Virus record (IMG/VR): IMGVR_UViG_3300002092_001784
Span: 202,154 to 266,153 of that record
Length of the DNA stretch: 64,000 nt
Direction: 5' to 3' (one strand)
Source: a virus
Lineage: Duplodnaviria > Caudoviricetes
The stretch's first letter is position 1. Every line of letters starts with the position of its first letter. Under the pieces are notes generated by a model. It ran no database searches. It was given only the letters and a program-made list of their open reading frames with translations, and was not told the DNA's origin. This document shows, piece by piece, positions 28,706 through 53,633 of the stretch. Made by a program: the position numbers and the translations under genes.

Positions 28706-31700
28706 ATGAATGAGCTTGTAAAACATTTAGTTGAAACTATAATTTCGGAAGAAACTGAAAAAAATTATATTGTTGTATATTCCGGTAGATTTCAACCATT
28801 TCACAAAGGACATTATGCTACTTACTTAAATCTTACCAAAAAATTTGGAAAAGATAAAGTTTACATTGCTACGTCTAATGTAACTGATAATAAAAAATCA
28901 CCTTTTAATTTTGCAGAAAAAAAGGTTATAATGACTAGAATGTTCGATATTCCATCGGACAAAATAGTACAGATTAGAAACCCATATGCACCTACTGAAA
29001 TATTAAATAAATATGATCCAGAAAAGACAGGTGTTATTTTTGTTGTTGGTGAAAAGGATACTGCTAGACTTGGTGGTAAATATTTCACACCATATAAGGG
29101 TACGGTTGATGCTGGATATAAAGATAAAGGATATGTATATGCTTCACCTGCACAACCAAACGCAATAAGTGGTACTGATGTTCGTAATTGGTTAGGTAAC
29201 GGTACGGATGAAGAAAAGAGAGCCAATTTTCTGAAAGCATATCCAAAATTCGATGAGAAGATTTTCAAATTAATAACACTCAAGTTGAAAAAATTGGGTG
29301 AATCTATACGTGAGGAAATCAAAATCAATGTAAATGTTGGCGATACGGTGTTAATGGGAAAATTCAAAAACCATCCGGTTAAAGTTAAATCAATCGGTAA
29401 GGATGAACATGGTATGCCAACCATTAATGGAAAGAAAGCCGCTACATTCAGAATAGGTAATCATATAAATATATTTGATACTGCGGTCAATGAAGATGGT
29501 GCGGGCGCCGGAGGTGCTGCCGGGTTTGGAGGACAAGGTGGTGGAGCTGGTGTTGGGTTATCTTTACCCGGTGGATATATAAACGGAGCACCAAATCCAA
29601 AGGATGTTAAAAAGACAAGAAAGAAATTAAAACAAAAAGATGATGATATTTACACACCAGTAAATGAAGCATCTCTTGCTGGATATTATGCTGATAGCGG
29701 AGAACCAAATCCTAATTATGTAGCTGATGGACAAGAACGTATTTTAGATAAAGGAAAGCCAGAACCTTGGTTTACACAAGGAGGGTATACTCAATTACAT
29801 ATTCCAAAAGGTGATTGGATGAGAGGTAAGGCATTAAAAGATCGTGAAGATGATATGCAACTTCGTAAGGTATACTACAAAGTTCAAAATATTAAACAAA
29901 GTGCATTAAATCCGGCAGATGATCCACATACTACCGAAGATTGGCAAGTTGTTAATAGGGATACTCCGTTGGAAAAACCAAAAAGATTTTGGGAATTACC
30001 AAAAAATCAAAAGCCTGAAATAATAGATGATAAAGAAATTACTGAAATATTCAATCAGACCCTAAAAGAATTGGGATTGTTGGAATTTAGTGGTGGGCAC
30101 TCGTTTCCACATGATGGTAACGCAACAACAGGTCGTCAATGGAACAAATCATGGGAAGAATATGATAATCCGGATGCATATATTAAACACCTAATGGGAT
30201 GGTCTACTAAAGATGCCATACCAAGCGATAGGTTTAAGGATATTAAACATCAAGAAATTCCATTAAATCAATCCGGACAGGAAACAGGAATATACGATCA
30301 TACATTGGATTACAATATACTTGCTCCAAATGAATTTTTAGAAAAATCTGAAATTCAAAAGGGTGTGGTGAACGATGCTTCAGATGAAATGCATCGTCCT
30401 TTACATAATGGAATGGAATGGCCATCTATGGATGATATTAAAGCCAAACGAAAAAAAATAAAATCAAAACTTCGAAGTCCTAAAAATTCGTATTTGAGTG
30501 TGGATGCTCCAATCGTAGGTGAAACCGATTCCGAAGCATTAGATGAAATGGCAATGCCAGATATGAAATCGGTAGAAAAATACGCAGATCAACAGTTGAG
30601 TCCGGAAGATGTTGAATTAGGAAAGCAAACTGACCATTTTTTCCAACGATTAAATGATCCACGAAACGGAAAACCAATTTCGACAGCAGAAATGATAGGT
30701 TTCTTTAAGAGGTTGGGTAACAACAAAGAGAAATTTTTAGATTTTGTAAAGAAATATAGTGAATTTGTTGTAAAGGATAATAGAACAAATATCAATATCG
30801 CCTTTATGAAGCAGGCTAATAAACTTATTGCCAAAACGGTGATGAGAAAGCCTGATTTTAAGACAAGCAATCCAATATTTGTAGATGAAGCTGAACAATT
30901 GGATGAATTGGCATGGTCTACTAGTGCATTTAATTTTGTGCAAGATGTTGATGTACCATTTACACCAAAAGTTGCAAAAGCACTCTATGGTGATATGATA
31001 GTTACTACATTTCATGTTAGCGATTCTGATAATATTGATAATATTAAAAAGTTAATCGGTAAGAAAAAATCAGTGTCAACATTTACATATATGGCGCGAA
31101 CCGCTTTGCAGAATATGGATGGTATACAAACCGACGGTGGTATAATATATCAATTAGTTGGTAAGGTTTTAATAGATTCTGCGAATGATATTATGAGTAG
31201 ACCTGATGAACAGGGTAGACGGTGGGTAATGGGACGAGATTTGAATCCAGTTACCTATAAATTGTATCAGAAATTTTATAAGTATATGGGTTCTAAGAAA
31301 GAACTTCAAAAATACGATGAAAAATATGAATCAACTTATGATGCAGACACTGACTCTAGTTCATTAACCAATAAAGAAAAATCTGAATGGATAGCAGCAT
31401 ACATTCGATTGGCTGAAGAGTGGATTATTCAGCACGCCGATGAATTTAGGGATACTATGCGTAAGATGCCAATGGATGAATATTGGAATGAAGTAGTGGT
31501 ATACGATATACACATTAAAGATGTATTGTGGACAAACTCTGGGCAGTTTGGGACGGCTGACGAAGATGAATTGAATGAAATAAGTCATAAATTAAATACA
31601 ATCGCAACCGGAACTGTTTATTACACCGATGAACCTTCAGATGCATTGAAATTTGTAAAATCAAGAGGTGGACAATATGCCAAAGCAAATATCGGATTAC

Positions 31701-32173
31701 CATATAAAGGTGTGCCGGTTGGCAGTACAAATATTAATAGTATATTAAGTGCCGACGCATTTAACATGAAAGAATCGGTTCAACCAATTAGTATCAACGA
31801 AGCAACCGAAGCATTGAAGATGCACATACCATCGGATATTGAGCAAATATATAAAATGTTTCAAAAAAATGGTAAGAAATTGTATATTGTTGGTGGTGCT
31901 GTTAGGGATGCTATTTTGGGAAAGACACCAAAAGATTTTGATTTAGCAACCGATGCTACTCCTGATGAAGTTTTAGCTATGGCTAAAAAGGAAGGTATGC
32001 ATTCGACAGAAGTTGGAAAAGCATTTGGTGTGGTGATTGTTAATGGTAATGAAATAGCAACTTTCAGGAAAGATGTGAAATTAAAAGATAATGCAGATGA
32101 TTTTATAAAATATTTACAATATATTAATATACCGAATACTCGTATATCTACTTTCAAAAAAGAATTGAATTAG
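28706..32173 (+). CDS. Multidomain polyprotein A: NMNAT/NadM-like nucleotidyltransferase, small unknown modules, ART-like module, N-terminal half of class II CCA-adding enzyme
   Basis: SGRFQPFHKGH...SPF...ISGTDVR, then LYIVGGAVRD...KDFDLATD...EIATFRKD near the C-terminus. Modules are bounded by VNE/LDE/INE linkers. Confidence 0.8.
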   Translation: MNELVKHLVETIISEETEKNYIVVYSGRFQPFHKGHYATYLNLTKKFGKDKVYIATSNVTDNKKSPFNFAEKKVIMTRMFDIPSDKIVQIRNPYAPTEILNKYDPEKTGVIFVVGEKDTARLGGKYFTPYKGTVDAGYKDKGYVYASPAQPNAISGTDVRNWLGNGTDEEKRANFLKAYPKFDEKIFKLITLKLKKLGESIREEIKINVNVGDTVLMGKFKNHPVKVKSIGKDEHGMPTINGKKAATFRIGNHINIFDTAVNEDGAGAGGAAGFGGQGGGAGVGLSLPGGYINGAPNPKDVKKTRKKLKQKDDDIYTPVNEASLAGYYADSGEPNPNYVADGQERILDKGKPEPWFTQGGYTQLHIPKGDWMRGKALKDREDDMQLRKVYYKVQNIKQSALNPADDPHTTEDWQVVNRDTPLEKPKRFWELPKNQKPEIIDDKEITEIFNQTLKELGLLEFSGGHSFPHDGNATTGRQWNKSWEEYDNPDAYIKHLMGWSTKDAIPSDRFKDIKHQEIPLNQSGQETGIYDHTLDYNILAPNEFLEKSEIQKGVVNDASDEMHRPLHNGMEWPSMDDIKAKRKKIKSKLRSPKNSYLSVDAPIVGETDSEALDEMAMPDMKSVEKYADQQLSPEDVELGKQTDHFFQRLNDPRNGKPISTAEMIGFFKRLGNNKEKFLDFVKKYSEFVVKDNRTNINIAFMKQANKLIAKTVMRKPDFKTSNPIFVDEAEQLDELAWSTSAFNFVQDVDVPFTPKVAKALYGDMIVTTFHVSDSDNIDNIKKLIGKKKSVSTFTYMARTALQNMDGIQTDGGIIYQLVGKVLIDSANDIMSRPDEQGRRWVMGRDLNPVTYKLYQKFYKYMGSKKELQKYDEKYESTYDADTDSSSLTNKEKSEWIAAYIRLAEEWIIQHADEFRDTMRKMPMDEYWNEVVVYDIHIKDVLWTNSGQFGTADEDELNEISHKLNTIATGTVYYTDEPSDALKFVKSRGGQYAKANIGLPYKGVPVGSTNINSILSADAFNMKESVQPISINEATEALKMHIPSDIEQIYKMFQKNGKKLYIVGGAVRDAILGKTPKDFDLATDATPDEVLAMAKKEGMHSTEVGKAFGVVIVNGNEIATFRKDVKLKDNADDFIKYLQYINIPNTRISTFKKELN

Positions 32174-32211
32174 CCACATTTCGTTTATTTTATTAATTAA
32201 TATTTATATGT

Positions 32212-32964
32212 ATGATTATATACAAAGTAACAAATAAAATAAATAAAAAGATATATATTGGACAAACTATACGTTCAATGACGGAACGTAAATATGGACA
32301 TATAAAATCTGTTAGAATGGGAAGTACTTCGTTGTTTCATAATTCTATTAGAAAATATGGAATTGATAATTTTACATGGGAAGTAATAGACACGGCACAT
32401 TGTATAGAAAAGTTAAATGAATTAGAAATTAGTTATATTGCAAAATTTAATTGTTTTATTGATTTTCAAAATAGTAATGGGTATAATATGAATACTGGTG
32501 GTGGTAATTATATAACATCACATTTAACTAAACAAAAACTTAGTATTATAAATACCGGTAAAATTTTATCAACCGAAACTAAAGAGAAAATCAGTAAAGG
32601 TAACCTTGGAAAATCAGTAACCGAATCATTTCGAAAAACTATGAGTGAGTTAAATAAAGGTAGAGTTGCTAGTTTGGAAACTAGAGAAAAAATAAGTAAA
32701 TCTTTGCAAGGCAAGCCGGGTAGAAATACCGGTAATACGCATACTCAAGAAACTAAAGAAAAAATATCGAATACAAAAAAAGGAACGGTTTCTTGGAATG
32801 CATCGCCAGTTATACAACTAACGATGGACGGCGAATTTGTTAGAGAATGGCGAAGCGCAGCATTTGCCGCATCCCAATTAAAGTTAAGTCAAGGCAATAT
32901 AACATCATGTATACATGGTAAACGAAACAGTACTGGTAACTACAAATGGATTAAAAAAATATGA
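32212..32964 (+). CDS. GIY-YIG homing endonuclease inserted into the CCA-enzyme coding region
   Basis: IIYKVTNKINKKIYIGQT...GYN, several NUMOD3 repeats and C-terminal NUMOD1. The stop overlaps the next start (ATGA). Confidence 0.92.
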   Translation: MIIYKVTNKINKKIYIGQTIRSMTERKYGHIKSVRMGSTSLFHNSIRKYGIDNFTWEVIDTAHCIEKLNELEISYIAKFNCFIDFQNSNGYNMNTGGGNYITSHLTKQKLSIINTGKILSTETKEKISKGNLGKSVTESFRKTMSELNKGRVASLETREKISKSLQGKPGRNTGNTHTQETKEKISNTKKGTVSWNASPVIQLTMDGEFVREWRSAAFAASQLKLSQGNITSCIHGKRNSTGNYKWIKKI

Positions 32965-35900
32965 AAAATTGGAAAGAAATTGCTAAGCAGTATTTTGCGG
33001 ATGAATATATTGATTTTCAAAAATTAATAAGTGGTACTGGTGCAAATATAAACGTTAAACGGGGGGCTCAGATTGTAGATTATACGGATATTGAGGGTGA
33101 TGTCAAACGACGTGACTTGACAATTAATGCGTTATTTTATGATATTGATAGAGGTGAAATCGTAGATTTAGTTGGTGGTATAGCAGATTTACATAAAAAG
33201 AAAATACGAACCGTTGGTAACGCAACTGAAAGATTTGATGAAGACCCTCTTCGGAAATTAAGAGCGTTGAGATTTTACAGTCAACTGGGTGGTAATATGG
33301 ATGTTGAAACTCTTAAAGCATTAAAAGATAACCCATCATTGGAAGGTGTAAGTGCGGAAAGGATTCGTGACGAATTTATAAAAACACTTAATAAAGCAAA
33401 ATCCGAAAAGAGATACCTTCAAATGCTGCAAGCTCTTAAATTCTTAAATCAAATTCTACCCGATTTGGTGGTGGCTAAACCGTATGTAGATGAAAATGAT
33501 TACATTGTATTACTTGCGTATTTGCTTAGAGAAAATGATACTCAAACTCTAATACGTCAACTAAATAAGTTGAAGTATACAAACGATGAATGTAAAGATA
33601 TAACTTTTTTGGTATCGCTACAATCATTCACCGCAGATAAAATTGCCAATTACAAAAAAAACCAATCTGTTACTACATTAAGTGATAATCAAATATTGGA
33701 ATTTGGGAAATTGATCGGAAAGAACTTCAATAAATTTGTGAAATTTCAATTAGCTATAAAAGGTTCAGATGTACCTGCTGGATTAAAAGGTAAAGATATT
33801 GGAAATTGGATGGGTGATGCTGAATCAAAACGATTTTTGAATGAAGCAGTAGTGATTAAAAATTTCAAAGATATATTCAGTAAATTACCAACTGAAGTTC
33901 AGAAAAAAATATATTCACTAAAAGATGCACCGCAAAACCCAAAACATCATCCGGAAGGTAATACATTAAAGCACACTATTATGGTGGTGAATCGTGCATT
34001 GAAGTATTTTCCGAATGATATTGATTTAATAATAGCAGCAATATTTCACGATATAGGTAAAGCTGATACGATGAGTATTCATCCAAAGACCGGTGGTATA
34101 ACTCATTATGGGCATGAAGATGTATCTACCGAATGGGTTAACCGATATAGTAATTGGATTGAATCTATGGGTGGAAACGCTGAAGATGTACGATATATTG
34201 TACAGAACCATATGAAAATGCATAATTTTGATATAATGCGATTGGCAAAACAACGTGCATTACAATCGCATCCTGCATTTGATAAATTATATGGATTTTC
34301 CCAAAAAATGGATAAGGGTGGATTCGGTGAGGGAATACATGAGGGAGTAAGTGAGGGTATAAATAATCCAAAAATTACATTTCTAATCGGACCTCCTGCT
34401 TCTGGAAAAAGTACTTGGGTTAGTAATAACTCAAAAGGTGCTATTATCATTTCACGTGACGATATTGTAGACCGTTTAAGAAAACCATTGGGATTATCGT
34501 ATGGTGAGGCATTTAGTAATGATGAGTTACAAAATAAAGTTAATTCTGAGCTACAATCCCATATTACACAGACACTTACTTCTGGCAAGGATATAGTTGT
34601 GGATATGACTAATATGACCAAAAAAGGTAGACATAAAATATTATCAAGAGTACCAAAAAACTATACAAAAAATGCGGTAGTGTTTAGTGTTGGTCGTGAT
34701 GAATTACTTAAACGATTAAAATCAAGGGAAGAAGAAACTGGGAAAACTGTACCTGTTTCGGTTGTAGACCAAATGATTAGGAATTTTCAGAAGCCAGATA
34801 CCGGAGAATTTGATAACATTACAAATGAGGGAATAACTGAGGGTGTAATCAATGAATTGGCTTGGCAAGGCAAAGCAATGGATCGGATACAGGAATTGGG
34901 ATTCCCATTGACACCTAAAATTGGTAAGGAAGTATATGGTGATACAGTTGTTACTACATTTCATGTAAGCGATGTAAACCATATTGATGATATTAAAAAA
35001 ATAATCGGTAAAAAGAAATCCATATCAACATTCAAATATATGAATGATATGATGCTGAAAAATATGGATGGCATTAGAACCGTCGGTGGTATTATTTATG
35101 AATTGCGAGGAAATATAGTAGCAGATTCAACCAAAGATATAGGTAGTGCCCCAGATGAACAAGGACGTAGATGGGTGATGCTATATTCATCGGCACCGGG
35201 TATATATAAATTTACATATGGGTTCAAACAGAAATTAAAATCCAATCCAATAACAGGTCCTATTTTTGAGTATTTTTGGAAAAATGGTATAATGCCGGAA
35301 ATGGATAATACTAATAAAGCAAAATTCATAGCAGCATATATTTCTACGGCAGAAAAATACATAATTGAAAATCAAGATGATTGGGTACAACTATTGCTTT
35401 CACCGCAAACTAATAATGCTTGGAATGAAGTATTGGTAAATAATATACAAGTTAATGATATAATTTGGACAAATAAATTTTATCAATATAGTAAAGAACA
35501 ATTAGCTGAATATTCTAAAAAATTAGAAGTAATTGCAAAGGGTAAAGTATATTTTACAATGGATTCAAAAGATACCATTGAATTTGTTAAATCACGCGGT
35601 GGCTTTACTGGTAATATTAATGCCACACCAAAAGAATATATGGGAGCGGCAGTTGGAAGTGAAGATGCAATGAAATTTATGAAAGAAGAAGTGCTGAATG
35701 AATTGGCTTGGGAGGCTGGTGTTAATAAATTTATAACACAAATGAATTTTCCGTTTACACCAAAAGTTGGGAAAGCATTATATGGTGACGCGGTTGCTAC
35801 TACATTTCATATAACAGATGCTGACAACTTTTCTAAAATAAAATCTCTTATCGGCAAAAAGAAATCCATTTCTTCGTTTACCTTTATGGGTGATGATATG

Positions 35901-37844
35901 TTAGATGATATAAGGGGAATACAGACCGTAGGTGGTATTTTATTTCAATTAGAAGCAAAAATAGTACTAGATTCCGCGGTAGATGCGATGAGTCAACCGG
36001 ATACAGAAGGTAGACGTTGGTCAATCGAACCAACAACATTGAGAAAACAATTCAAACAGGAAATATATGATGATGCCAAGTTTTATAAACGATTTAATTT
36101 ATATTGGGCTGGCGGAAAGGCAATGACTCAAAGTGAAAAGGGTAAGTTTGTAGCGGATTATATCACACGAGCTGAAAAGTTTTTAATTAAAAATAAAAAT
36201 AAAGTTATAAAAGAGTTAAGATCGCATGGGTTGGTGGGTGATTGGAATGAAGTTATTGTATATGATATAAAGGTAAAGGATGTATTATGGACAAATACTT
36301 CCAATAATTATTATACCGATAGAATACGACATAGTGATGCTGAAATAAAGCGTATTGCTAGTGAACTAAAACAAATAGCAACTGGTACTGTATATTTTAC
36401 TGAAAATCCTAAAGATGCTATTGAATTTGTGAAAAGTAGAGGTGGTTTTGTTGGTGGCAGTGGCTGGGACTCTACTGGTGAATATAAAGGAGCTGCTGTT
36501 GGCAGTACAAATCCAAAAATTATTATGAAAGAAGGAAATATGAAAACTATAATGGAAGGCTTGAGTAAAAAAGATTTACTAATCGAAGAACTGATGGTTC
36601 AAAGACAATACGGATTACTTGCTAATAACCAAAAGGTATTACTACAATGTGGTGGGGCCTACGGACATATGCATCACCCATTTGATACCGAAATCAATCT
36701 TACATTTGGGGATTTGAAAGATATAGTAAAGAAAGCGTTAACTGGTGAATTGGAACTTACTCGTGAAAAAACAGATGGTCAGGCTCTCGCAATTAGTTGG
36801 GTAGACGGTAGATTGGTTGCTGCTCGTAATAAATCACATCTTAAAAACAAAGGAAAGGATGCAATGACTTTACAAGCCGTTGCTGATAAATTTGGTGGGC
36901 GTGGTGGATTATCCGATGCATACAATTTTGCAATGCAAGACCTTTCAAATGCAATTAGTGCATTATCAGAAGCACAAAGACAACTTATATTCAAAGATGG
37001 GACATGTTTTATGAATTTGGAAGTAATATATCCAACTTCGGTAAATGTAATACCATACAATCAGGCACTATTGGTATTTCATGGAACATTTGAATACGAC
37101 GAGAGTGGAAACATAATTGGTGAAAATCAACCCGCAGCTCGTGTATTGGCAGGTATGATTAAGCAGGTAAACCAGAATGTTCAAACGAAATACAAAATAC
37201 AAGGACCACCGGTTATTCAATTACCAAAATCGGCAGATTTGACAGACCTTCAATCAAAATATTTGGCAATGGTTTCAAAATTACAATCAGAATTTGGATT
37301 ATCAGATTCAGATGGTGTTGCTGATTATCATCAGGCATGGTGGAGGTATTACATCGATGTTAACGCACATTCATTGCCGGAAGAACAAAAGAAAGCACTA
37401 ACAAAAAGATGGGCATTTTACGATAAATCATTTAGGTTGAAGGATATTCAAGATGATACAGTTAGAGCTTGGGCTGAAAAAATAGATAAGCAAGATCAAG
37501 CAAAAATTGCGAAAGATAATCTAATGAGGTTTGAACAGATATTTTTAGGAGTGGGTTCAGATGTACTTTCATTTATGAAATCAGTTCTTACCGCAAATCC
37601 TGATGAAGCAAAACGACAGATGGTTAGTAAATTAGATCAAACGATTAAAGATGTAAAAAACAGTGGTGATCCGAAAAAGATAGAAAAACTAAAATTAGAA
37701 TTACAGAGATTACAATCGGTAGGTGGGTTTGATAAAATTGTACCAATCGAAGGTATTGTTTTTGTATATAAAGGTAACGTAATGAAGCTAACAGGCGCTT
37801 TTGCTGCATGCAATCAAATTAACGGTATCTTTTTTTCAAAATAG
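32961..37844 (+). CDS. Multidomain polyprotein B: C-terminal part of CCA enzyme, HD domain, P-loop PNK-like kinase, two ART-like modules, RNA-ligase-like domain
   Basis: DVKRRDLTINA and FDEDPLRKLRALRF, HHPEG...FHDIGK...HYGHE, GPPASGKST...VVDMTN, EKTDG...NLEVI...EGIVF...MKL. Confidence 0.82.
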   Translation: MKNWKEIAKQYFADEYIDFQKLISGTGANINVKRGAQIVDYTDIEGDVKRRDLTINALFYDIDRGEIVDLVGGIADLHKKKIRTVGNATERFDEDPLRKLRALRFYSQLGGNMDVETLKALKDNPSLEGVSAERIRDEFIKTLNKAKSEKRYLQMLQALKFLNQILPDLVVAKPYVDENDYIVLLAYLLRENDTQTLIRQLNKLKYTNDECKDITFLVSLQSFTADKIANYKKNQSVTTLSDNQILEFGKLIGKNFNKFVKFQLAIKGSDVPAGLKGKDIGNWMGDAESKRFLNEAVVIKNFKDIFSKLPTEVQKKIYSLKDAPQNPKHHPEGNTLKHTIMVVNRALKYFPNDIDLIIAAIFHDIGKADTMSIHPKTGGITHYGHEDVSTEWVNRYSNWIESMGGNAEDVRYIVQNHMKMHNFDIMRLAKQRALQSHPAFDKLYGFSQKMDKGGFGEGIHEGVSEGINNPKITFLIGPPASGKSTWVSNNSKGAIIISRDDIVDRLRKPLGLSYGEAFSNDELQNKVNSELQSHITQTLTSGKDIVVDMTNMTKKGRHKILSRVPKNYTKNAVVFSVGRDELLKRLKSREEETGKTVPVSVVDQMIRNFQKPDTGEFDNITNEGITEGVINELAWQGKAMDRIQELGFPLTPKIGKEVYGDTVVTTFHVSDVNHIDDIKKIIGKKKSISTFKYMNDMMLKNMDGIRTVGGIIYELRGNIVADSTKDIGSAPDEQGRRWVMLYSSAPGIYKFTYGFKQKLKSNPITGPIFEYFWKNGIMPEMDNTNKAKFIAAYISTAEKYIIENQDDWVQLLLSPQTNNAWNEVLVNNIQVNDIIWTNKFYQYSKEQLAEYSKKLEVIAKGKVYFTMDSKDTIEFVKSRGGFTGNINATPKEYMGAAVGSEDAMKFMKEEVLNELAWEAGVNKFITQMNFPFTPKVGKALYGDAVATTFHITDADNFSKIKSLIGKKKSISSFTFMGDDMLDDIRGIQTVGGILFQLEAKIVLDSAVDAMSQPDTEGRRWSIEPTTLRKQFKQEIYDDAKFYKRFNLYWAGGKAMTQSEKGKFVADYITRAEKFLIKNKNKVIKELRSHGLVGDWNEVIVYDIKVKDVLWTNTSNNYYTDRIRHSDAEIKRIASELKQIATGTVYFTENPKDAIEFVKSRGGFVGGSGWDSTGEYKGAAVGSTNPKIIMKEGNMKTIMEGLSKKDLLIEELMVQRQYGLLANNQKVLLQCGGAYGHMHHPFDTEINLTFGDLKDIVKKALTGELELTREKTDGQALAISWVDGRLVAARNKSHLKNKGKDAMTLQAVADKFGGRGGLSDAYNFAMQDLSNAISALSEAQRQLIFKDGTCFMNLEVIYPTSVNVIPYNQALLVFHGTFEYDESGNIIGENQPAARVLAGMIKQVNQNVQTKYKIQGPPVIQLPKSADLTDLQSKYLAMVSKLQSEFGLSDSDGVADYHQAWWRYYIDVNAHSLPEEQKKALTKRWAFYDKSFRLKDIQDDTVRAWAEKIDKQDQAKIAKDNLMRFEQIFLGVGSDVLSFMKSVLTANPDEAKRQMVSKLDQTIKDVKNSGDPKKIEKLKLELQRLQSVGGFDKIVPIEGIVFVYKGNVMKLTGAFAACNQINGIFFSK

Positions 37845-41638: not shown

Positions 41639-43417
41639 ATGGGAGAAAACGAATTAGATGATAGAAGTTTTTTTGGTAGGCTAAAGAAACTATTTTCTAC
41701 AACTGCCATTGTCCGTATGGATAAAGATGGTAAACGGAAAGTAGTTGATACGGATGACCGCCAATATATGACTAATTTCACAAATCTTAGGGATCGTTAT
41801 TCTAAGTTACAGCGTTCATATTATGAGCAACAGGGTGGTGCACAATCAATGGCATATCATCAAGTCCGTAGGGAATTGTTCAGAGATTATGATGCTATGG
41901 ATAATGACCCTATTATTGCATCCGCATTGGATATTTATGCGGACGAAAGTACTACTAAAGATGAGTATGGTGATGTACTTCAAATAAAATCAACAAACGA
42001 ACAAGTTAGAGATATTCTTAATAATCTTTTTTATGATATTATGAATATTGAATTTAATTTATGGCCTTGGACTAGAAACCTTGTTAAATACGGTGACTTC
42101 TTTTTGGCATTGGAAATAGCCGAAGATCAAGGTATTATAAATGTAATGCCTTATTCTGTTTATAATACAGAACGTATAGAAGGTAGTGATCCAAACAATC
42201 AAAATTATATAAAATTTAGAGTAGAAGTAGACCGTTTTGGTAAAAAAGAGTATGAGAACTATGAGATGGCTCATTTTAGATTACTGTCTGATACAAATTT
42301 TCTACCATATGGTAAAGCTATGATTGAAAACGGTCGTAGAGTGTGGAAACAATTATCATTAATGGAAGATGCTATGATGATACATCGTATTATGAGAGCA
42401 CCTGAGAAAAGAGTATTCAAAATTGATATTGGTAACATTCCACCTACTGAAGTTGATAACTATATGCAAAAGATTATCAACAAAATGAAAAAAGTACCAT
42501 TTTTAGACCACAATACAGGAGAATATAATCTGAAATACAATATGCAGAATATTGCTGAAGATTTTTATCTACCGGTTCGTGGTGGTGATAGTGGAACTTC
42601 GATTGATAACCTAGCTGGATTGGAATATGCGGCAATTGAGGATATTGATTATCTAAAAGCAAAACTATTTGCTGCACTTAAAGTACCAAAGGCTTATTTA
42701 TCTTACGATGAAAATGTAAACGGTAAAGCAACACTTGCAGCAGAAGATGTTCGATTCGCTAGAACTATTGAAAGAATACAAAGAACGATAGTTAGTGAAT
42801 TGACTAAAATAGCAATAGTACATTTGGCAGCACAGGGTATAACTGATGCAGAAATGACAAACTTTGAATTAAGTTTAACAAATGCATCCACTATCTACGA
42901 ACAAGAAAAGGTAAATCTTTGGGCTGAAAAAGTTAATTTGGCTACTAATATCAAATCATTGAATATGTTATCCGATGATTGGCAGTATCATAATGTGTTT
43001 GGTATGAGTGATGATGAAATTGATGTAGAACGTGCAAAAATAGTTCTTGACTTAAAACAAAGATTCAGATATACATCAATTGAACAACAAGGGCAAGACC
43101 CAGCAAATCCACCACAACAAACCGATGTTGAAGGTGAATTGGAAGAGATGCAAACTAAAATGGGTAATAAAGGTGGTAGACCGCAGGAAGGAAATACTTA
43201 TGGTAAAGATAAACACCCATATGGTAGAGACCCACTTGGAAACAAAGAAAACGAAAAGGAGAGAAAGCGAGAAACCCGCCCAAATAGTGTAATTGGTAGT
43301 AAACTGGCTCGTGAATACAAAGAAAGTATTTCATCTAAGAATAACCGCAAATCTATTTTATCGGAAAAACGAGACCTATTAAGTGAAGATAATATATTAG
43401 ATGACACCAAAATTTAA
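41639..43417 (+). CDS. gp20: Portal protein (T4 gp20-like)
   Basis: LEDAMMIHRIMRAPEKRVFKIDIGN, EDFYLPVRGG, IEDIDYL...LFAALKVP, EDVRFARTIERIQ. Confidence 0.95.
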   Translation: MGENELDDRSFFGRLKKLFSTTAIVRMDKDGKRKVVDTDDRQYMTNFTNLRDRYSKLQRSYYEQQGGAQSMAYHQVRRELFRDYDAMDNDPIIASALDIYADESTTKDEYGDVLQIKSTNEQVRDILNNLFYDIMNIEFNLWPWTRNLVKYGDFFLALEIAEDQGIINVMPYSVYNTERIEGSDPNNQNYIKFRVEVDRFGKKEYENYEMAHFRLLSDTNFLPYGKAMIENGRRVWKQLSLMEDAMMIHRIMRAPEKRVFKIDIGNIPPTEVDNYMQKIINKMKKVPFLDHNTGEYNLKYNMQNIAEDFYLPVRGGDSGTSIDNLAGLEYAAIEDIDYLKAKLFAALKVPKAYLSYDENVNGKATLAAEDVRFARTIERIQRTIVSELTKIAIVHLAAQGITDAEMTNFELSLTNASTIYEQEKVNLWAEKVNLATNIKSLNMLSDDWQYHNVFGMSDDEIDVERAKIVLDLKQRFRYTSIEQQGQDPANPPQQTDVEGELEEMQTKMGNKGGRPQEGNTYGKDKHPYGRDPLGNKENEKERKRETRPNSVIGSKLAREYKESISSKNNRKSILSEKRDLLSEDNILDDTKI

Positions 43418-47106: not shown

Positions 47107-47706
47107 ATGCAACCAAAACTATTAATTGAAACAAGACTATTTGAAGGACGAGTACAAGAAGATTCTGGCGGAAGGACTCTTGTAAAGGGTATTCTTCAGA
47201 GAGCTGATGCTGAAAACCAAAACGGTAGAAAGTACCCACGTCAGGTATTAATGCGTGAAGCCAAAAAATACGAAACTCTAATTAAAGAACGTAGGGCTCT
47301 TGGTGAATTAGACCACCCAGATTCAACGGTTATCAATCTAAAGAACGTATCTCACAATATTAGAGAAATACATTGGGATGGGGATGATTTGTGTGGTACT
47401 ATTGAAATTTTACCAACACCATCCGGCAATATTTTGAAGGAACTTCTTAAAGCAGGTATTCTATTGGGAATTTCTTCAAGAGGTATGGGTTCTACTCGTC
47501 AGTTAGAAGGTACAACAGTGGAAGTGCAAGATGATTTTGAATTAATTGCATGGGACTTTGTATCAAATCCATCTACACAAGGAGCATTTATGACGCCTGT
47601 AAATGAATCAGTAAATAGAGGACTTCAACAAATTGGAACTGATATTTGCGGAGAATATTGCAGAGCACAGGATTTAATGAGAGAAATTATAACAGAAATA
47701 TCATAA
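47107..47706 (+). CDS. gp21: Prohead maturation protease (T4 gp21-like)
   Basis: ENQNGRKYP, RALGELDHP, GISSRGMGS, DFVSNPS. Confidence 0.95.
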   Translation: MQPKLLIETRLFEGRVQEDSGGRTLVKGILQRADAENQNGRKYPRQVLMREAKKYETLIKERRALGELDHPDSTVINLKNVSHNIREIHWDGDDLCGTIEILPTPSGNILKELLKAGILLGISSRGMGSTRQLEGTTVEVQDDFELIAWDFVSNPSTQGAFMTPVNESVNRGLQQIGTDICGEYCRAQDLMREIITEIS

Positions 47707-48334: not shown

Positions 48335-48718
48335 ATGAAAAAGCAAAATTCGTATCTAATAATGGAAGGTAGTGCTAATCCTAAAAATTTGAAAGAATCA
48401 GTGTTAACCGAAGATATTACACATGAAGTAATTTTACCATTATTACCACTACTTAGTGTTATAGCTGGAGTGGGTATCGGCAGTTTTATCGGTGATTTGG
48501 ACCTTGATAGGGGTATCATACAATCCTTAAAAGATTCTTGGAATGGATATTTTAGAAACCGAGCTGTCAAAAAGATAGTGGACCGCATTAAAGATGATAA
48601 AGATGTTCAAGAATTTCTAAACCATCCAAGTAAACCCGGTTGGACAAAAATGCTAGTTACCAAACTTACATCTGAAGAAAAAAAATACCTATACAGTTTA
48701 ACTCGAAATAAATTTTAA
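48335..48718 (+). CDS. Putative internal head protein with targeting leader and hydrophobic helix
   Basis: Leader MKKQNSYLIMEGSANPKNL is shared with the next gene, followed by VILPLLPLLSVIAGVGIGSFIG. Confidence 0.65.
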   Translation: MKKQNSYLIMEGSANPKNLKESVLTEDITHEVILPLLPLLSVIAGVGIGSFIGDLDLDRGIIQSLKDSWNGYFRNRAVKKIVDRIKDDKDVQEFLNHPSKPGWTKMLVTKLTSEEKKYLYSLTRNKF

Positions 48719-48720
48719 CT

Positions 48721-49254
48721 ATGAAAACGCAAAATTCGTATCTAATAATGGAGGGTAGTGCTAACCCTAAGAACTTGGTAAGTACTAAAACTAAAAAAGT
48801 TATCAAAGAAGGTGAAGACCACGAAGTATCTATGGCAGGAAACCAATTAGATACTATTATAAAAGCAGCAACCGAATTGAAAGCCAAAATCGGAACTGAT
48901 GAAAAAAATCTACCGGGATGGGTACAAGACCATATTTCTCAATCTGAAAACTTTATATCTCAAGCTAATAACGGTTATGGTGAAACTAATGAAGTAATTA
49001 AAAAGGGTAAATTTAACGAAGTATCTAATGGTGATTTTATAACACTTGATGTAAACGTTGGAGATACGGTAAAATTTTATACAAATACACCTGTGCAGAA
49101 TGTTGGAACAACCGGAAAGGCTCAAACTGGAAAGGTTGTTAAAGTAGATTCAACTACATTTACCGTAAAGGGTAATGATGGTAAGGAACATAAACTTCCA
49201 AAGAAATGGTACAAACATGCTACTTATTTACCATCTATTCTTAAAAAGGGGTAA
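48721..49254 (+). CDS. Putative internal head protein with targeting leader, helical module and KOW/SH3-like module
   Basis: Leader MKTQNSYLIMEGSANPKNL, module EVSMA..QL...LPGWVQDHISQS, and VNVGDTVKF...GKVVKVD. Confidence 0.65.
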   Translation: MKTQNSYLIMEGSANPKNLVSTKTKKVIKEGEDHEVSMAGNQLDTIIKAATELKAKIGTDEKNLPGWVQDHISQSENFISQANNGYGETNEVIKKGKFNEVSNGDFITLDVNVGDTVKFYTNTPVQNVGTTGKAQTGKVVKVDSTTFTVKGNDGKEHKLPKKWYKHATYLPSILKKG

Positions 49255-49265
49255 TACTATAAAAC

Positions 49266-50093
49266 ATGGCAAAACTATTAAACGAATGTATAATTGTTTC
49301 TAAGAAATTTGGAAACGATATGGTTTTGGCAAAAAACAGAGATAGAGCATATAAGCCGCTCATAGAAGTGGTTCATACTTTGATGAATGGTATTGAAGTT
49401 GTGTATTTACATGATATTACAACCGATTGGAGTGAAGGTATGAATGAATTGGGTATCGGTGTTGTTAATACTTCGTTGTTGGTAGGATATGATGAAAAAG
49501 AAAAACAAATCATATCTAAAACCGGTAAGAAATCAAAAGATGGTATTAAGATAAGAACTGCTCTTGGACAAAAAACATTATCAAAGGCATTATTATCGGT
49601 GGTTAAGTTTAATGGTGGTGTAAAGGGACACACTTTTGTGGCAGACCCTAACCATCTGATTACAGTAGAAATGACTTCGAAACATGCTCCTATAATCAAA
49701 CAGCAAGACCCAACCAAATCATATGTAAGAACGAATCATGGACTAGCACATCCAGATGCCGGATATACTGAAGGACCTGATTATAAAAGTTCAATAGTTC
49801 GTAGAGCATCTGCAAAGGCTGCAATTACAAAATTGAAAGATTGGAGAGATGAATTGAAAGCATTGAGAACTAATCGGTATTCGCATGATAATCCGAATAA
49901 TATGAGTAGAGATACGGATAAAATGATGACAACCACACAGATGCAATTAAATCTAACCCGTAAAATATTTACTCTAAACTATTTTGGAGACAGAGTTGAA
50001 GGATTCAAAGGAATACGAAGTGAATTACCATCGGATTATATGCCAAAAATACAAATAAAAATAAAAGATTTATCAGAAACTCAGAATAATTGA
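49266..50093 (+). CDS. Ntn-hydrolase (peptidase C45/C69/CBAH-like) with 7-aa propeptide
   Basis: MAKLLNE followed by CIIV...LAKNRDR...EGMNELGI...VRTNH. Confidence 0.75.
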   Translation: MAKLLNECIIVSKKFGNDMVLAKNRDRAYKPLIEVVHTLMNGIEVVYLHDITTDWSEGMNELGIGVVNTSLLVGYDEKEKQIISKTGKKSKDGIKIRTALGQKTLSKALLSVVKFNGGVKGHTFVADPNHLITVEMTSKHAPIIKQQDPTKSYVRTNHGLAHPDAGYTEGPDYKSSIVRRASAKAAITKLKDWRDELKALRTNRYSHDNPNNMSRDTDKMMTTTQMQLNLTRKIFTLNYFGDRVEGFKGIRSELPSDYMPKIQIKIKDLSETQNN

Positions 50094-50125: not shown

Positions 50126-50602
50126 ATGCCCGCAGTATCAAAAGCACAACAACATTTTATGGGTATGGTTCATGCTGCACAGAAAGGTGAAGAACCTGCA
50201 AGTCCCGAAGTAGCAAAAGTAGCTAAATCAATTGAGCCAAAAGCAGCAAAGGATTATGCATCAACATCAACTAAAAATCTACCAGACCATAAACTAAAAG
50301 AAGCGATTCGTAAGATATATAGAGAATATTTAAGGGAATGTTCAATGACAGAATCACTAAACGAAGATGTTTCAGATATAAAAACTCCTATTTATTTCAA
50401 ATCAAAAAAAGGAGTAAGTGGATTTGATACCGATACTACATTTTTTGTAAAAGATATGCCCGATTATGGAAATGTTAAGGTTTATCATTACCGTGGACGT
50501 TTGGAACAATTTATTTGGTTTGAAAAAGATAAATTAATAAGGCAATTTAAGAGTGGAGATTTCTATAAAGTTGATAAAAACGAATATAAACCCAATAACT
50601 AA
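50126..50602 (+). CDS. Putative internal head protein with DUF3008-like N-terminus
   Basis: MPAVSKAQQHFMGMVHAAQKG...AKDYAST...LP, then LKE/LNE linkers and a beta-rich module. Confidence 0.55.
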   Translation: MPAVSKAQQHFMGMVHAAQKGEEPASPEVAKVAKSIEPKAAKDYASTSTKNLPDHKLKEAIRKIYREYLRECSMTESLNEDVSDIKTPIYFKSKKGVSGFDTDTTFFVKDMPDYGNVKVYHYRGRLEQFIWFEKDKLIRQFKSGDFYKVDKNEYKPNN

Positions 50603-50822: not shown

Positions 50823-51977
50823 ATGGCAAGTTCAAAACTATTAAAAGAAGCAATTGCTGATGCTAAAGCTGTGCGTGAAACTGCTATTGCCAATGCCAAA
50901 ATCGCTCTCGAAGAAGCGTTTACTCCAAGACTTCAATCTATTCTTTCAAGAAAGCTACAAGCTGAAATTGAAGATAACGATGATGAAGATTTGGATGATG
51001 TAAACGAAGAAAATGATGCATCAAGCGAAATCGGAAAAGGTGATAACAAAACTCCGGCTATTAAAGCAAATTCAGCACAAACAGACCTAAGTGGTATTTC
51101 TAAAACAGGAGATGCACAGGGTAGTGAATTAGATGATTATGACAAAGTTAAAGACCTTACTGAAGGTGATGATGACTTTGGAGATGATGACACTGATTTG
51201 GATACCGATGATGACACTGATTTGGATACCGATGGTGATGACACCGATTGGGATGCTGATGATACCGATGATGACCAAGACGAAGATGATTTAGATTTAG
51301 AATCTATTATTAGAGAATTGGAAGATGGTATGGATGATGATACCGATGGGTATTCGGATGATACTGAAGTAGATGAAGCAGATGAAAATGAAGATGGCGT
51401 AACCGATGATGTAACTGGTGCAACAAATCCATACACAGAAGGTGATGACACTGATTTTGATACCGATGGTGACACCGAAGGCGAAGATGATGATATTGAT
51501 TTAGATGAAATTCTTCGTGAAATGGGATATGGTGATGATGAAGATGGTGAAGAAGCTCCTGTTGAGGATGATGATACTGCTGAAGAATTAGCAGCTACTC
51601 AAAATGAATTAAAAGAAGCTATGAAAACTATTCATTCATTACGCAAAACCATCAATGAAGTGAATTTATTGAACGCAAAATTATTATTCGCAAACAAATT
51701 GTTCCGTGGTTATAATCTAACTAACGAACAAAAAGTAAAAGTTGTTGAAAACTTGGACAGAACTTCATCTGTAAGAGAAGTTAAGTTAGTTTATTCAACT
51801 CTTTGTGAATCAATGAAATTCTCTGGTACTCAAAAGAAACAATCTGTAAAGAGAACTATTTCTGAAGGATTGGCTTCTAAACCACAGAAATCTACCGCAC
51901 CTAAAAAAGAAATTCTTTCAGAGGGTGACATGATGGCTAAAAGATTCCAAGAATTAGCAGGAATCACTTCAAAATAA
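50823..51977 (+). CDS. gp22: Prohead scaffolding/core protein (gp22-like)
   Basis: LLKEAIADAKAVRETA N-terminus, very acidic middle and coiled coil, directly before the major capsid gene. Confidence 0.8.
   Translation: MASSKLLKEAIADAKAVRETAIANAKIALEEAFTPRLQSILSRKLQAEIEDNDDEDLDDVNEENDASSEIGKGDNKTPAIKANSAQTDLSGISKTGDAQGSELDDYDKVKDLTEGDDDFGDDDTDLDTDDDTDLDTDGDDTDWDADDTDDDQDEDDLDLESIIRELEDGMDDDTDGYSDDTEVDEADENEDGVTDDVTGATNPYTEGDDTDFDTDGDTEGEDDDIDLDEILREMGYGDDEDGEEAPVEDDDTAEELAATQNELKEAMKTIHSLRKTINEVNLLNAKLLFANKLFRGYNLTNEQKVKVVENLDRTSSVREVKLVYSTLCESMKFSGTQKKQSVKRTISEGLASKPQKSTAPKKEILSEGDMMAKRFQELAGITSK
51183..51230 (+). repeat. Exact 24-nt tandem duplication (DDDTDLDT x2) in scaffold gene
   Basis: GATGATGACACTGATTTGGATACC occurs twice. 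Confidence 0.85.
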
Positions 51978-52001: not shown

Positions 52002-53633
52002 ATGGCAAATTTTGACTTATCTAAATTGATGGAAGGCAAAAACCCACAAAGCGTAATGTTGGCAGAAACTCGTCAACTTAAAGGTAAATGGGCGAAAACA
52101 GGTCTTCTTGAAGGATTGAAAGAAAGAGATCAACACTCTATGGCAGTGTTGTTAGAAAACCAAGCAAAACAATTGCTTGATGAGGCAACCCAAACTGGTA
52201 CATCTGCACACTCAGAAGAGTGGAGTGGTGTAGCTCTTCCTTTGGTTCGCCGTATTTTTGGTGAAATTGCATCGAAAGAGTTCGTTTCGGTTCAACCTAT
52301 GAACTTACCTTCCGGTCTTATTTTCTACCTTGACTTCAAATATGGTTCTGCACAAGGAGCACCTGGACAATATGGTGGAAAATCACTTTTTGGTGGTACT
52401 AACATAACCGGTTCAGCAACTAACTTTGGTAGAACTAACGCAGCTGTTAATGGTTTATACGGTGAAGGTCGTTATACCTATTCAGTAAATGATGGAACTG
52501 CCGCTACAGTAGCTATTGCTTCTGCTGCTTCTGCTTCTTGGGCAGATGTAGGTTTTAACAATACGTTATCAGCTTCTATTGCTGCTAATCAAATTGCTAA
52601 ACTTTCTATTACAAAATCAGCTATTAGTGCAACCGCTGATGTTGATGCAGTTCGTGCATACACCGCAACTGATTCACTTATCGTTGCCAATCTTAACGAA
52701 TTTAACTATTACAACGCATCTTTAGATAATATCGTACTTTTTGTATCTGCATCTAAAACAGATATGGCTGCATTGGTTAATGGTACTATTGATTCAATTG
52801 ATTATTCAGTTGTTCCTACCGATTACAATCGTGGTGACTTTGAAGATAAAACCGCACCAAGTGCAGGTAACACAACAACTGCATTGGATATTCCAGAAAT
52901 TGATCTTGAATTGAAATCAGAGGCCATCGTTGCTAAGACTCGTAAGTTGAAAGCAGTATGGACACCTGAACTTGCACAGGACTTAAACGCTTACCACTCA
53001 ATCGATGCTGAAGCAGAATTAACTTCAATGTTATCCGATTATATTTCTTTGGAAATTGATTTGGAAATCCTTGATATGTTAAAATCTAACGCTTTAACTA
53101 CTGATTACTGGTCAGCAACAGTTGGTGAAGAATACAATAACGGTGTTTGGACTGGTGGACAATCTTCAATGGCATACCAAAAATCAACTTGGTTTCAAAC
53201 CCTTGGAATCAAATTGAACAAAGTATCTAATAAGATTCACCAATTAACACTTCGTGGTGGAGCTAACTTCGTAGTTGCTTCTCCTGATGTATGTACTATT
53301 TTGGAATCTATTCCTGGATTCTTAGTAAGTGCTGAGAAAGATGCATTACAGTTCGCTGCAGGTGTATCTCAAGTAGGTGCATTGAGCAATCGCTACACCA
53401 TCTACAAAAATCCTTATATGACTTCTAACGAAATCTTAATGGGATACAGAGGAAACAACTTCCTTGAGACAGGTGCAGTTTACGCTCCATATGTACCATT
53501 GATTATGACTCCTTTGGTTTACGATCCTCAAAATTTTACTCCGAGGAGGGGTGTCATGACTCGTTACGCCAAGAAAATGGTGAGAAGCGAGTACTACGGA
53601 AAAATCTACATCAAAGATTTGAACACTATCTAA
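52002..53633 (+). CDS. gp23: Major capsid protein (T4 gp23-like)
   Basis: LLENQ propeptide, VQPMNLPSGLIFYL, AKTRKLKA.WT.ELAQDL.AYH..DAEAEL, YAPYVPL, TRY. Confidence 0.97.
   Translation: MANFDLSKLMEGKNPQSVMLAETRQLKGKWAKTGLLEGLKERDQHSMAVLLENQAKQLLDEATQTGTSAHSEEWSGVALPLVRRIFGEIASKEFVSVQPMNLPSGLIFYLDFKYGSAQGAPGQYGGKSLFGGTNITGSATNFGRTNAAVNGLYGEGRYTYSVNDGTAATVAIASAASASWADVGFNNTLSASIAANQIAKLSITKSAISATADVDAVRAYTATDSLIVANLNEFNYYNASLDNIVLFVSASKTDMAALVNGTIDSIDYSVVPTDYNRGDFEDKTAPSAGNTTTALDIPEIDLELKSEAIVAKTRKLKAVWTPELAQDLNAYHSIDAEAELTSMLSDYISLEIDLEILDMLKSNALTTDYWSATVGEEYNNGVWTGGQSSMAYQKSTWFQTLGIKLNKVSNKIHQLTLRGGANFVVASPDVCTILESIPGFLVSAEKDALQFAAGVSQVGALSNRYTIYKNPYMTSNEILMGYRGNNFLETGAVYAPYVPLIMTPLVYDPQNFTPRRGVMTRYAKKMVRSEYYGKIYIKDLNTI

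Follow-up and report, generated by a model that had tools for sequence, protein, structure and literature searches.

We analysed a gene (P0001) for a predicted cysteine N-terminal nucleophile (Ntn) hydrolase in a 64,000-nucleotide stretch of a Caudoviricetes virus (Duplodnaviria), positions 202,154 to 266,153 of IMG/VR record IMGVR_UViG_3300002092_001784; this whole stretch is called the window below. The source record, that of a T4-like jumbo phage, measures 266 kb, is rated 100% complete and carries the gene once. The open reading frame begins 11 nucleotides after the preceding gene with a seven-codon leader, MAKLLNE, that is followed immediately by Cys8, and no other in-frame ATG was found between the start of the leader and this cysteine. 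An initial annotation had read this arrangement as an Ntn-hydrolase zymogen activated by the capsid maturation protease. The positions of the gene, its motifs and its neighbours are collected in Table 1.

Fold and family of the protein

The AlphaFold2 model of the protein, built with an alignment, has a pLDDT of 93.7 and a pTM of 0.92, and Cys8 opens one of its strands (E8-15). A Foldseek search of the PDB returned 108 matches at E <= 0.001, headed by isopenicillin-N acyltransferase (AAT; 2x1c, 2.5e-9) and followed by bile-salt hydrolases (BSH), penicillin V acylase (PVA) and NAAA. The 50 best matches in VIA-align were all Ntn hydrolases or Ntn-fold proteins, with Z scores of 20.8 (3gvz, the maximum), 19.9 (NAAA), 19.5 (AAT), 18.7 (acid ceramidase), 17.6 (C69 dipeptidase) and about 17 (BSH and PVA), and the listed enzymes reached down to about 16-17. 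Residue 8 of the model aligns with the nucleophile of each mature chain: C103 of AAT, C126-131 of NAAA, C143 of acid ceramidase, C2 of BSH and C1 of PVA. Fold neighbours in Swiss-Prot were AAT, secernins, Tan and NAAA, and those among the AFDB clusters were named 'Peptidase C45 hydrolase domain'. The assignment to the Ntn hydrolases made in the initial annotation is thus borne out, since AlphaFold2, Foldseek and VIA-align all led to an Ntn fold, and on the strength of this model we regard a Cys-Ntn hydrolase fold with Cys8 at the nucleophile position as nearly certain.

The sequence features that had been singled out in the initial annotation, namely the MAKLLNE↓Cys8 start (the arrow marks the junction) and the motifs LAKNRDR, GMNELG and RTNH, are all present and fall on invariant or nearly invariant columns. 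In an alignment of 64 sequences the invariant columns are C8, K23, R25, D26, Y29, D50, E57, G58, N60, N68, D76, G121, N157, H158, G159, G166, S175, R179 and R215. For the cited motifs, C8, K23, N24, R25, D26, R27, E57, G58, N60, G63, R155, T156, N157 and H158 are invariant or nearly so, and the three motifs therefore mark the conserved core of this Ntn family. The invariant charged residues K23, D50, E57, D76, H158, R179 and R215 may hint at a polar ligand.

Within the Ntn hydrolases, the model and the profile comparisons indicate a compact Cys-Ntn amidohydrolase, with a mature length of about 263 residues, that is nearest to peptidase family C45. Its best family match was NCBIfam C45_proenzyme (NF040521, 'C45 family autoproteolytic acyltransferase/hydrolase'; 1.5e-9), at 37.7 bits against a cut-off of 85, and scans of the window protein against Pfam (E <= 1) and PHROG gave no match. 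Several relatives carry PF03417, the AAT/C45 family; P0158, at 30.9 bits, and P0155, at 25.0 bits, exceed its threshold of 23.2 bits. Because the window protein lies below both curated thresholds while relatives pass that of PF03417, we place it in a divergent sister clade and do not score it as a C45 member. With C45 and AAT it shares the alpha-beta-beta-alpha fold and a Cys at the mature start, and this family gave the best match by both profile and fold. However, identity to AAT is only about 14%, and AAT comprises about 250 residues plus an alpha chain of about 100 residues, compared with 263 residues for the window protein. In place of the 102-residue alpha subunit of AAT, which has Gly at P1, the window protein has a seven-residue leader with Glu at P1, and its clade is confined to viruses.

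NAAA, acid ceramidase, BSH and PVA likewise share the fold and the position of the nucleophile, together with an Arg/Asp pair conserved downstream of the Cys and a motif that contains Asn, but show no significant sequence similarity to the window protein. Searched against the PDB, the single sequence gave chance matches only (E >= 1.3) and the 64-sequence profile gave none, and the link to solved enzymes is therefore one of fold comparison. NAAA, acid ceramidase, BSH and PVA either activate themselves or depend on the removal of Met, and they act on lipids or bile salts, substrates to which nothing in the window protein points. To our knowledge, every relative so far characterised cleaves C-N amides that are non-peptide or very short, and by analogy the expected substrate is a non-peptide or short-peptide C-N amide.

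Ntn hydrolases need a free N-terminal nucleophile, so that any residues upstream of it must be removed before catalysis. Since Cys8 is the structural equivalent of this nucleophile, removal of MAKLLNE should be required for activity. At the other end of the protein, the disordered C-terminal tail (residues 269-275, 50076-50093) holds a further protease-type site, LSE271↓TQNN, at which a cut could remove four residues, comparable to the trimming of the T4 Alt C-terminus by gp21.

Residues preceding the nucleophile across the family

A word-index search yielded 644 relatives and an exhaustive search 474 cluster representatives. At least 539 IMG/VR contigs encode a relative, compared with three short contigs from metagenome-assembled genomes (MAGs) among prokaryote genomes representing 185,579 species, one genome each; the Ntn family is therefore essentially viral. 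The MAG relatives display the same junction types as the viral ones.

The junction was typed in 312 unique sequences. Class E, which is defined by Glu at P1 and has the form [L/I/V]-x-E↓C, accounts for 197 of them. Class 2, [K/R]-x-[A/S/G]↓C (82/312), belongs to giant non-T4 phages, where the domain is mostly a module of long polyvalent cargo proteins, and class 3 is the leaderless M↓C (28/312). Five sequences remained unclassed, two of which are artefacts of the regular expression and truly read MINE↓C, while LND↓C and LGQ↓C are among the rest. In a tree built from the domain only, with leaders excluded, class 2 and class E form two deep clades.

Class E comprises 139 distinct leaders, 3 to about 25 residues long, in which P3 is L in 89, I in 38, V in 10 and T or M in one each (L/I/V in 137/139). 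The entropy at P2 (2.7 bits) and at P4-P7 (3.3-3.6 bits) indicates that these positions are free. No spacer was seen between the [LIV]xE site and the Cys across the class E leaders. In the long open reading frames of the window, [LIV]xE occurs at about 1.5% of positions and directly precedes 2 of 90 Cys residues, so that one lone [LIV]xE↓C would stand out only a little. That 197 unique homologues retain it, by contrast, is on these sequence counts far beyond chance.

The prohead protease gp21 of T4 cleaves after L/I-X-E, and processing of the T4 IPIII leader is determined by its residues 8 and 10, which occupy P3 and P1 (PMC9026906). Several features of the window suggest that its own gp21 homologue follows the same rule. 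In the gp23-type capsid protein six [LIV]xE sites lie within residues 1-61, ending with LDE61↓A62, and the next is found only at residue 233. The gp21 homologue has an N-terminal cluster of such sites (LIE-8, LFE-13 and VQE-18) and another, ITE-197, three residues from its C-terminus; LIE-8 and ITE-197 parallel T4 gp21, for which self-processing at LIE-9 has been proposed. Judged from these sites, the protease of the window phage very probably has T4-type specificity. Furthermore, the S77 protease is present in all near-complete class E genomes (G001, G002, G003, G007 and G027) and in several partial ones. It is also present in the cultured Chryseobacterium phage MA9V-1, whose Ntn homologue begins ...FLNE↓C. 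In that phage the S77 domain forms the N-terminal part of a 1,349-residue frame (ORF151; L001 / OR050627.1 126501-130544), an unusually long fusion for a prohead protease.

Because class E keeps exactly P3 and P1 and leaves the remaining positions free, as does the gp21 rule, the prohead protease is the leading candidate for the removal of the leader. The exact abutment of site and cysteine leads in the same direction. Abutment is expected where the cut has to generate the N-terminal Cys, whereas under self-cleavage a targeting or cleavage site would be free to lie anywhere upstream; the fixed abutment therefore favors the protease.

Genomic setting and fusion partners

The Ntn gene is part of a T4-type head module, to which the portal, gp21-type protease, scaffold-like and gp23 genes also belong. 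Five small genes lie between the gp21 and scaffold genes of the window: a 208-residue open reading frame, two internal-protein-like genes with leaders, the Ntn gene and a DUF3008 gene.

Table 1. Positions of the Ntn-hydrolase gene, its parts and selected neighbours, numbered from the first nucleotide of the window.
Feature	Position	Strand	Description
Split cargo-type polyprotein	28706..37844	+	cytidylyltransferase-like, CCA-adding nucleotidyltransferase, HD and AAA_33/Zeta kinase domains
Portal	41639-43417		Pfam PF07230
gp21-type prohead core serine protease (Peptidase_S77)	47107..47706	+	PF03420 7.9e-27, phrog_207 1.6e-52
Internal-protein-like gene	48335..48718	+	leader MKKQNSYLIME↓G, resembles T4 capsid-targeting sequence
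Second internal-protein-like gene (ipB-like)	48721..49254	+	leader MKTQNSYLIME↓G; homologue adjoins the Ntn gene in closest relatives
Ntn-hydrolase gene (P0001)	49266..50093	+	275 aa; single copy in 266-kb genome
Leader MAKLLNE (7 codons)	49266..49286	+	L5-N6-E7, an L/I-X-E prohead-protease-type site at P3-P1
Cys8 codon (TGT)	49287..49289	+	invariant; predicted N-terminal nucleophile once the leader is removed
LAKNRDR (residues 21-27)	49326..49346	+	K23, R25 and D26 invariant; position of the Cys-Ntn Arg/Asp pair
GMNELG (residues 58-63)	49437..49454	+	G58 and N60 invariant; E57 just upstream also invariant
RTNH (residues 155-158)	49728..49739	+	N157, H158 and the following G159 invariant
DUF3008-type protein	50126..50602	+	homologue accompanies the Ntn gene in several closest relatives
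Acidic scaffold-like protein	50823..51977	+	16 [LIV]xE sites
gp23-type major capsid protein	52002..53633	+	PF07068 2.5e-75

The leader of the window protein is of the type found in T4 Alt and the internal proteins IPI-III, which have short leaders ending in L/I-x-E, are packaged in the head core and are ejected with the DNA; Alt, itself a packaged enzyme, sheds a seven-residue N-propeptide (PMC9026906). A difference is that in the T4 proteins the cut is not known to do more than free the protein from the core, whereas in the window protein it would also create the catalytic N-terminus.

Positions in other phages are varied. In the closest relatives (80% identity) the ipB-like gene, and in several of them also a DUF3008-like gene, travel with the Ntn gene. 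Across 80 related viral loci gp21 and gp23 usually lie more than 10 kb from the Ntn gene. A comparison of L027, L034 and L038-L042 showed gp21, scaffold and gp23 to be contiguous in the relatives, with the Ntn gene about 8 kb upstream in some. Of 96 class E loci, 42 have a cytidylyltransferase-led polyprotein at a distance of up to 4 kb, and 19 are near the TerL and portal genes. A conserved block of genes of about 130, 411 and 382-720 residues is found downstream of the Ntn gene in about half of the related phages, at about 60 loci (for example L004:10845-15734). The 130-, 411- and 382-residue neighbours gave no Pfam or PHROG match and hence no functional clue.

In many relatives the Ntn domain is an N-terminal or internal module of proteins of 500-2,800 residues, and the internal junctions are again [LIV]xE↓C or [KR]xA↓C. 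The commonest partner is topoisomerase IB (18 proteins). Others are DUF5661, CCA/poly(A) nucleotidyltransferase, 2H/LigT, RNA ligase, HAD_SAK_1, Zeta/AAA_33 kinase, cytidylyltransferase-like (CTP_transf) domains, ART-PolyVal, InPase, GNAT, PAP2, Ham1, ChaC, phosphatidylserine decarboxylase and Fe/Mn SOD. One such fusion protein matched the PHROG entries for a minor head protein, a virion structural protein and a DarB-like antirestriction protein. The effector domains ART-PolyVal, InPase and TopoIB and those of RNA repair are hallmarks shared with the polyvalent proteins of phages and conjugative elements described by Iyer et al. (2017, PMC5512222), in whose text a term search found no mention of Ntn, N-terminal nucleophile or acylase. 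The window protein differs in that its Ntn module stands alone; it is single-domain, and the multi-effector architecture of polyvalent proteins is seen in its relatives. However, the split polyprotein encoded elsewhere in the window has the very domains to which other phages fuse the Ntn module, and we therefore prefer to read the window protein as a free-standing component of the phage's cargo/effector set. In the initial annotation, amide-linked Bacteroidota lipids, peptidoglycan cross-links and isopeptide conjugates made by ubiquitin-like defences had been offered as substrates; the fusion partners point rather to a role as counter-defence cargo.

The class 2 relatives provide a second setting. 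Three genes lie near one another in the giant phage at locus L087 (7203-16348 and 18261-19763). One encodes a polyprotein for RNA repair (CCA-NTase + HAD_SAK_1 + 2H) and another a 2,130-residue polyvalent protein composed of Ntn, topoisomerase IB and InPase. Two genes downstream of this Ntn-bearing protein is the third, for a 501-residue protein that matches the head-maturation-protease family phrog_18299 (1.4e-8); the record itself gave no hit to the S77, S80 or gp23 families. No S77 protease was found in nine class 2 records, which are 6-79% complete and up to 288 kb long. Searches of the five largest for S80 and gp23 also gave nothing, a weak negative since the controls were silent too. It is possible, though we hold it only tentatively, that both phage lineages, the S77 (T4-like) phages with [L/I/V]-x-E↓Cys and the giant non-T4 phages with [K/R]-x-[A/S/G]↓Cys, often behind an RVAxR[F/Y] tag, wired the unmasking of the Ntn nucleophile to the specificity of their own head protease, which would make the capsid protease the obligatory trans-activator of a packaged effector.

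A further motif of the class 2 proteins was observed. The pattern [RK][VIL][AVS]x[RK][FYHW][LVM..] (as in RVAARHL and RVASRYL) occurs about 55 times in 80 class 2 proteins (P0121-P0269), compared with about 1-2 expected. Copies lie at either end of proteins (N-termini and extreme C-termini), in the regions that separate domains, in tandem, and 4-8 residues upstream of [KR]xA↓Cys, and S/P-rich residues often precede them. The 288-kb genome G015 (IMGVR_UViG_3300028177_000001, loci L151-L166) has 22 occurrences, compared with 7 expected, spread over more than 15 different proteins. The RVAxR[FYW] form is enriched genome-wide, but outside the Ntn junction [KR]x[ASG] does not follow it at a fixed spacing. 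The motif may be a capsid-targeting or docking tag of the giant non-T4 lineage.

Proposed removal of the leader and its consequences

Taken together, the results lead us to the following model, to which we assign a probability of roughly 0.55. The protein as translated would be inactive, with MAKLLNE blocking the alpha-amino group of Cys8. The precursor would enter the prohead core, as do T4 Alt and the internal proteins, and the phage's gp21 homologue would cut E7↓C8 as the head matures. The active enzyme would then be retained in the capsid and enter the next host with the DNA as a cargo module. The analysis shows the fold, the equivalence of the nucleophile, the conservation of the motif, the co-occurrence with S77 and the fusions, whereas head incorporation, the identity of the cutting agent and injection are inferred. 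That the prohead protease is what unmasks Cys8 we consider slightly better than an even proposition, and the layout kept in about 200 phage sequences suggests an enzyme that is switched on inside the maturing capsid. Cleavage at LNE-C by the capsid protease, as put forward in the initial annotation, thus fits the L/I-X-E rule and a site conserved in the clade of S77 phages, and both the cut itself and packaging are putative.

Several observations weigh against this model. The tree places the leaderless M↓C forms at six or more separate points, mostly within the E clade (12 state changes over 312 tips), and S77 is present in the M↓C genomes G023-G026, two of which are at least 96% complete. Because M↓C forms arose at least six times in S77 phages, the leader and its gating by a protease must be dispensable, and together with the LND↓C variant (69 member sequences) this means that the earlier claim of an enzyme switched on only inside the maturing head does not hold in general. 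In the IPIII leader of T4, an Asp at P1 prevents processing by gp21 (PMC9026906), so the LND↓C variant runs counter to cleavage by gp21, and LGQ↓C is likewise present among the family leaders. The leaders MINE and MLTE are very short, and MINE is far shorter than the 10-residue capsid-targeting sequence of T4. The link between motif class and protease type amounts to one unreplicated evolutionary contrast, because it follows a single deep split of the tree. For the cultured phages MA9V-1 and MA9V-2, the published papers report SDS-PAGE or genomics only, and no virion mass spectrometry was found in them.

Genomic position offers little help. In the closest relatives neither gp21 nor gp23 lies within 10 kb of the Ntn gene, and M↓C and class E genes occupy the same genomic positions. 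We considered the argument that a position in the head module implies head cargo and rejected it as a general one, since among the 80 loci this placement is special to the window phage.

The main alternative, possible but clearly less probable than the model above, is that the protein removes its own leader by an N-to-S acyl shift, as do C45 acyltransferase, penicillin V acylase, NAAA and C69 dipeptidase, with [LIV]xE serving that reaction or the folding of the precursor and with the prohead protease uninvolved; the enzyme, packaged or not, may then work late in infection within the host cell. C45 and related Cys-Ntn enzymes normally autoprocess, those with short leaders included; the junction of AAT is Gly↓Cys, unlike the [LIV]xE↓C junction of the window protein. 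The best family match, NF040521, is named autoproteolytic, the solved relatives include self-cleaving precursor forms (2x1c, 6dxw, 2iwm and 5u84), and the sister clade has A, S or G at P1, small residues of the kind usual where Ntn junctions cleave themselves. The natural LND↓C and LGQ↓C variants, the repeated loss of the leader and the brevity of MINE and MLTE are also as this explanation would have them. However, no reason is known why self-cleavage should call for a hydrophobic P3 and a Glu at P1 around a free P2, which is the gp21 rule. Furthermore, M↓C forms fold and persist without [LIV]xE, which indicates that these residues are not structural, and [LIV]xE↓C is confined to the lineage that owns the S77 protease. 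These points lead us to prefer cleavage by the prohead protease.

Two other roles appear less probable still. The enzyme could be an envelope amidase, tail- or baseplate-associated or free late in infection, that aids penetration or lysis through cleavage of an amide of peptidoglycan or of an envelope lipid and whose activation is unrelated to the head. Consistent with this, 46 of 96 class E loci, which also counts against our model, and 13 of 18 M↓C loci lie directly upstream of the conserved block that leads toward gp25 baseplate genes and a GH19-like lysozyme; among the relatives, NAAA, acid ceramidase, BSH and PVA have lipid-like or small amides as substrates; and PAP2 and phosphatidylserine decarboxylase are among the fusion partners. 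We nevertheless find this role unlikely, as the conserved neighbours have no recognisable function, most fusion partners are the cytoplasm-directed nucleic-acid and nucleotide enzymes of polyvalent cargo proteins, and neither a signal peptide nor a cell-wall-binding domain was detected in the window protein, whose gene sits between gp21 and scaffold among leader-bearing internal-protein-like genes. The most improbable of the explanations is a head-internal clean-up peptidase, similar to C69 dipeptidases, that would be unmasked by gp21, digest scaffold and propeptide fragments to empty the capsid and not be injected. The C69 dipeptidases are structural neighbours (Z about 17), gating by the protease would confine activity to the head, and the gene is near the scaffold gene in the window phage. 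On the other hand, M↓C forms and positions outside the head genes are common, the fusions to effector-type domains argue for delivery to the host, and the nearest family is C45 and not C69.

We know of no precedent for an Ntn hydrolase activated in trans, and our literature searches found no paper on a phage Ntn hydrolase or on one activated by a prohead protease. Nor did the literature searched hold a precedent for a head-protease site that acts as an Ntn activation switch. If cleavage by the prohead protease is correct, an Ntn hydrolase would have handed its obligatory N-terminal unmasking to a second, viral protease, and activation would be coupled to capsid maturation, keeping a potentially harmful amidase silent in the cell that produces it. 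The T4 paradigm of a leader plus gp21 would then be extended from the release of cargo to its switching on, and a virus-restricted enzyme family, found on more than 500 viral contigs, would join the injected phage effectors and polyvalent proteins. The cultured Chryseobacterium phages MA9V-1 and MA9V-2 carry LNE↓C homologues, MA9V1_182 and MA9V2_239, that read ...FLNE↓CVIAAK, which makes the idea directly testable. Whatever removes the leader, the residues that precede the invariant Cys differ by lineage and so offer a simple sequence handle on the specificity of head proteases in uncultured jumbo phages.

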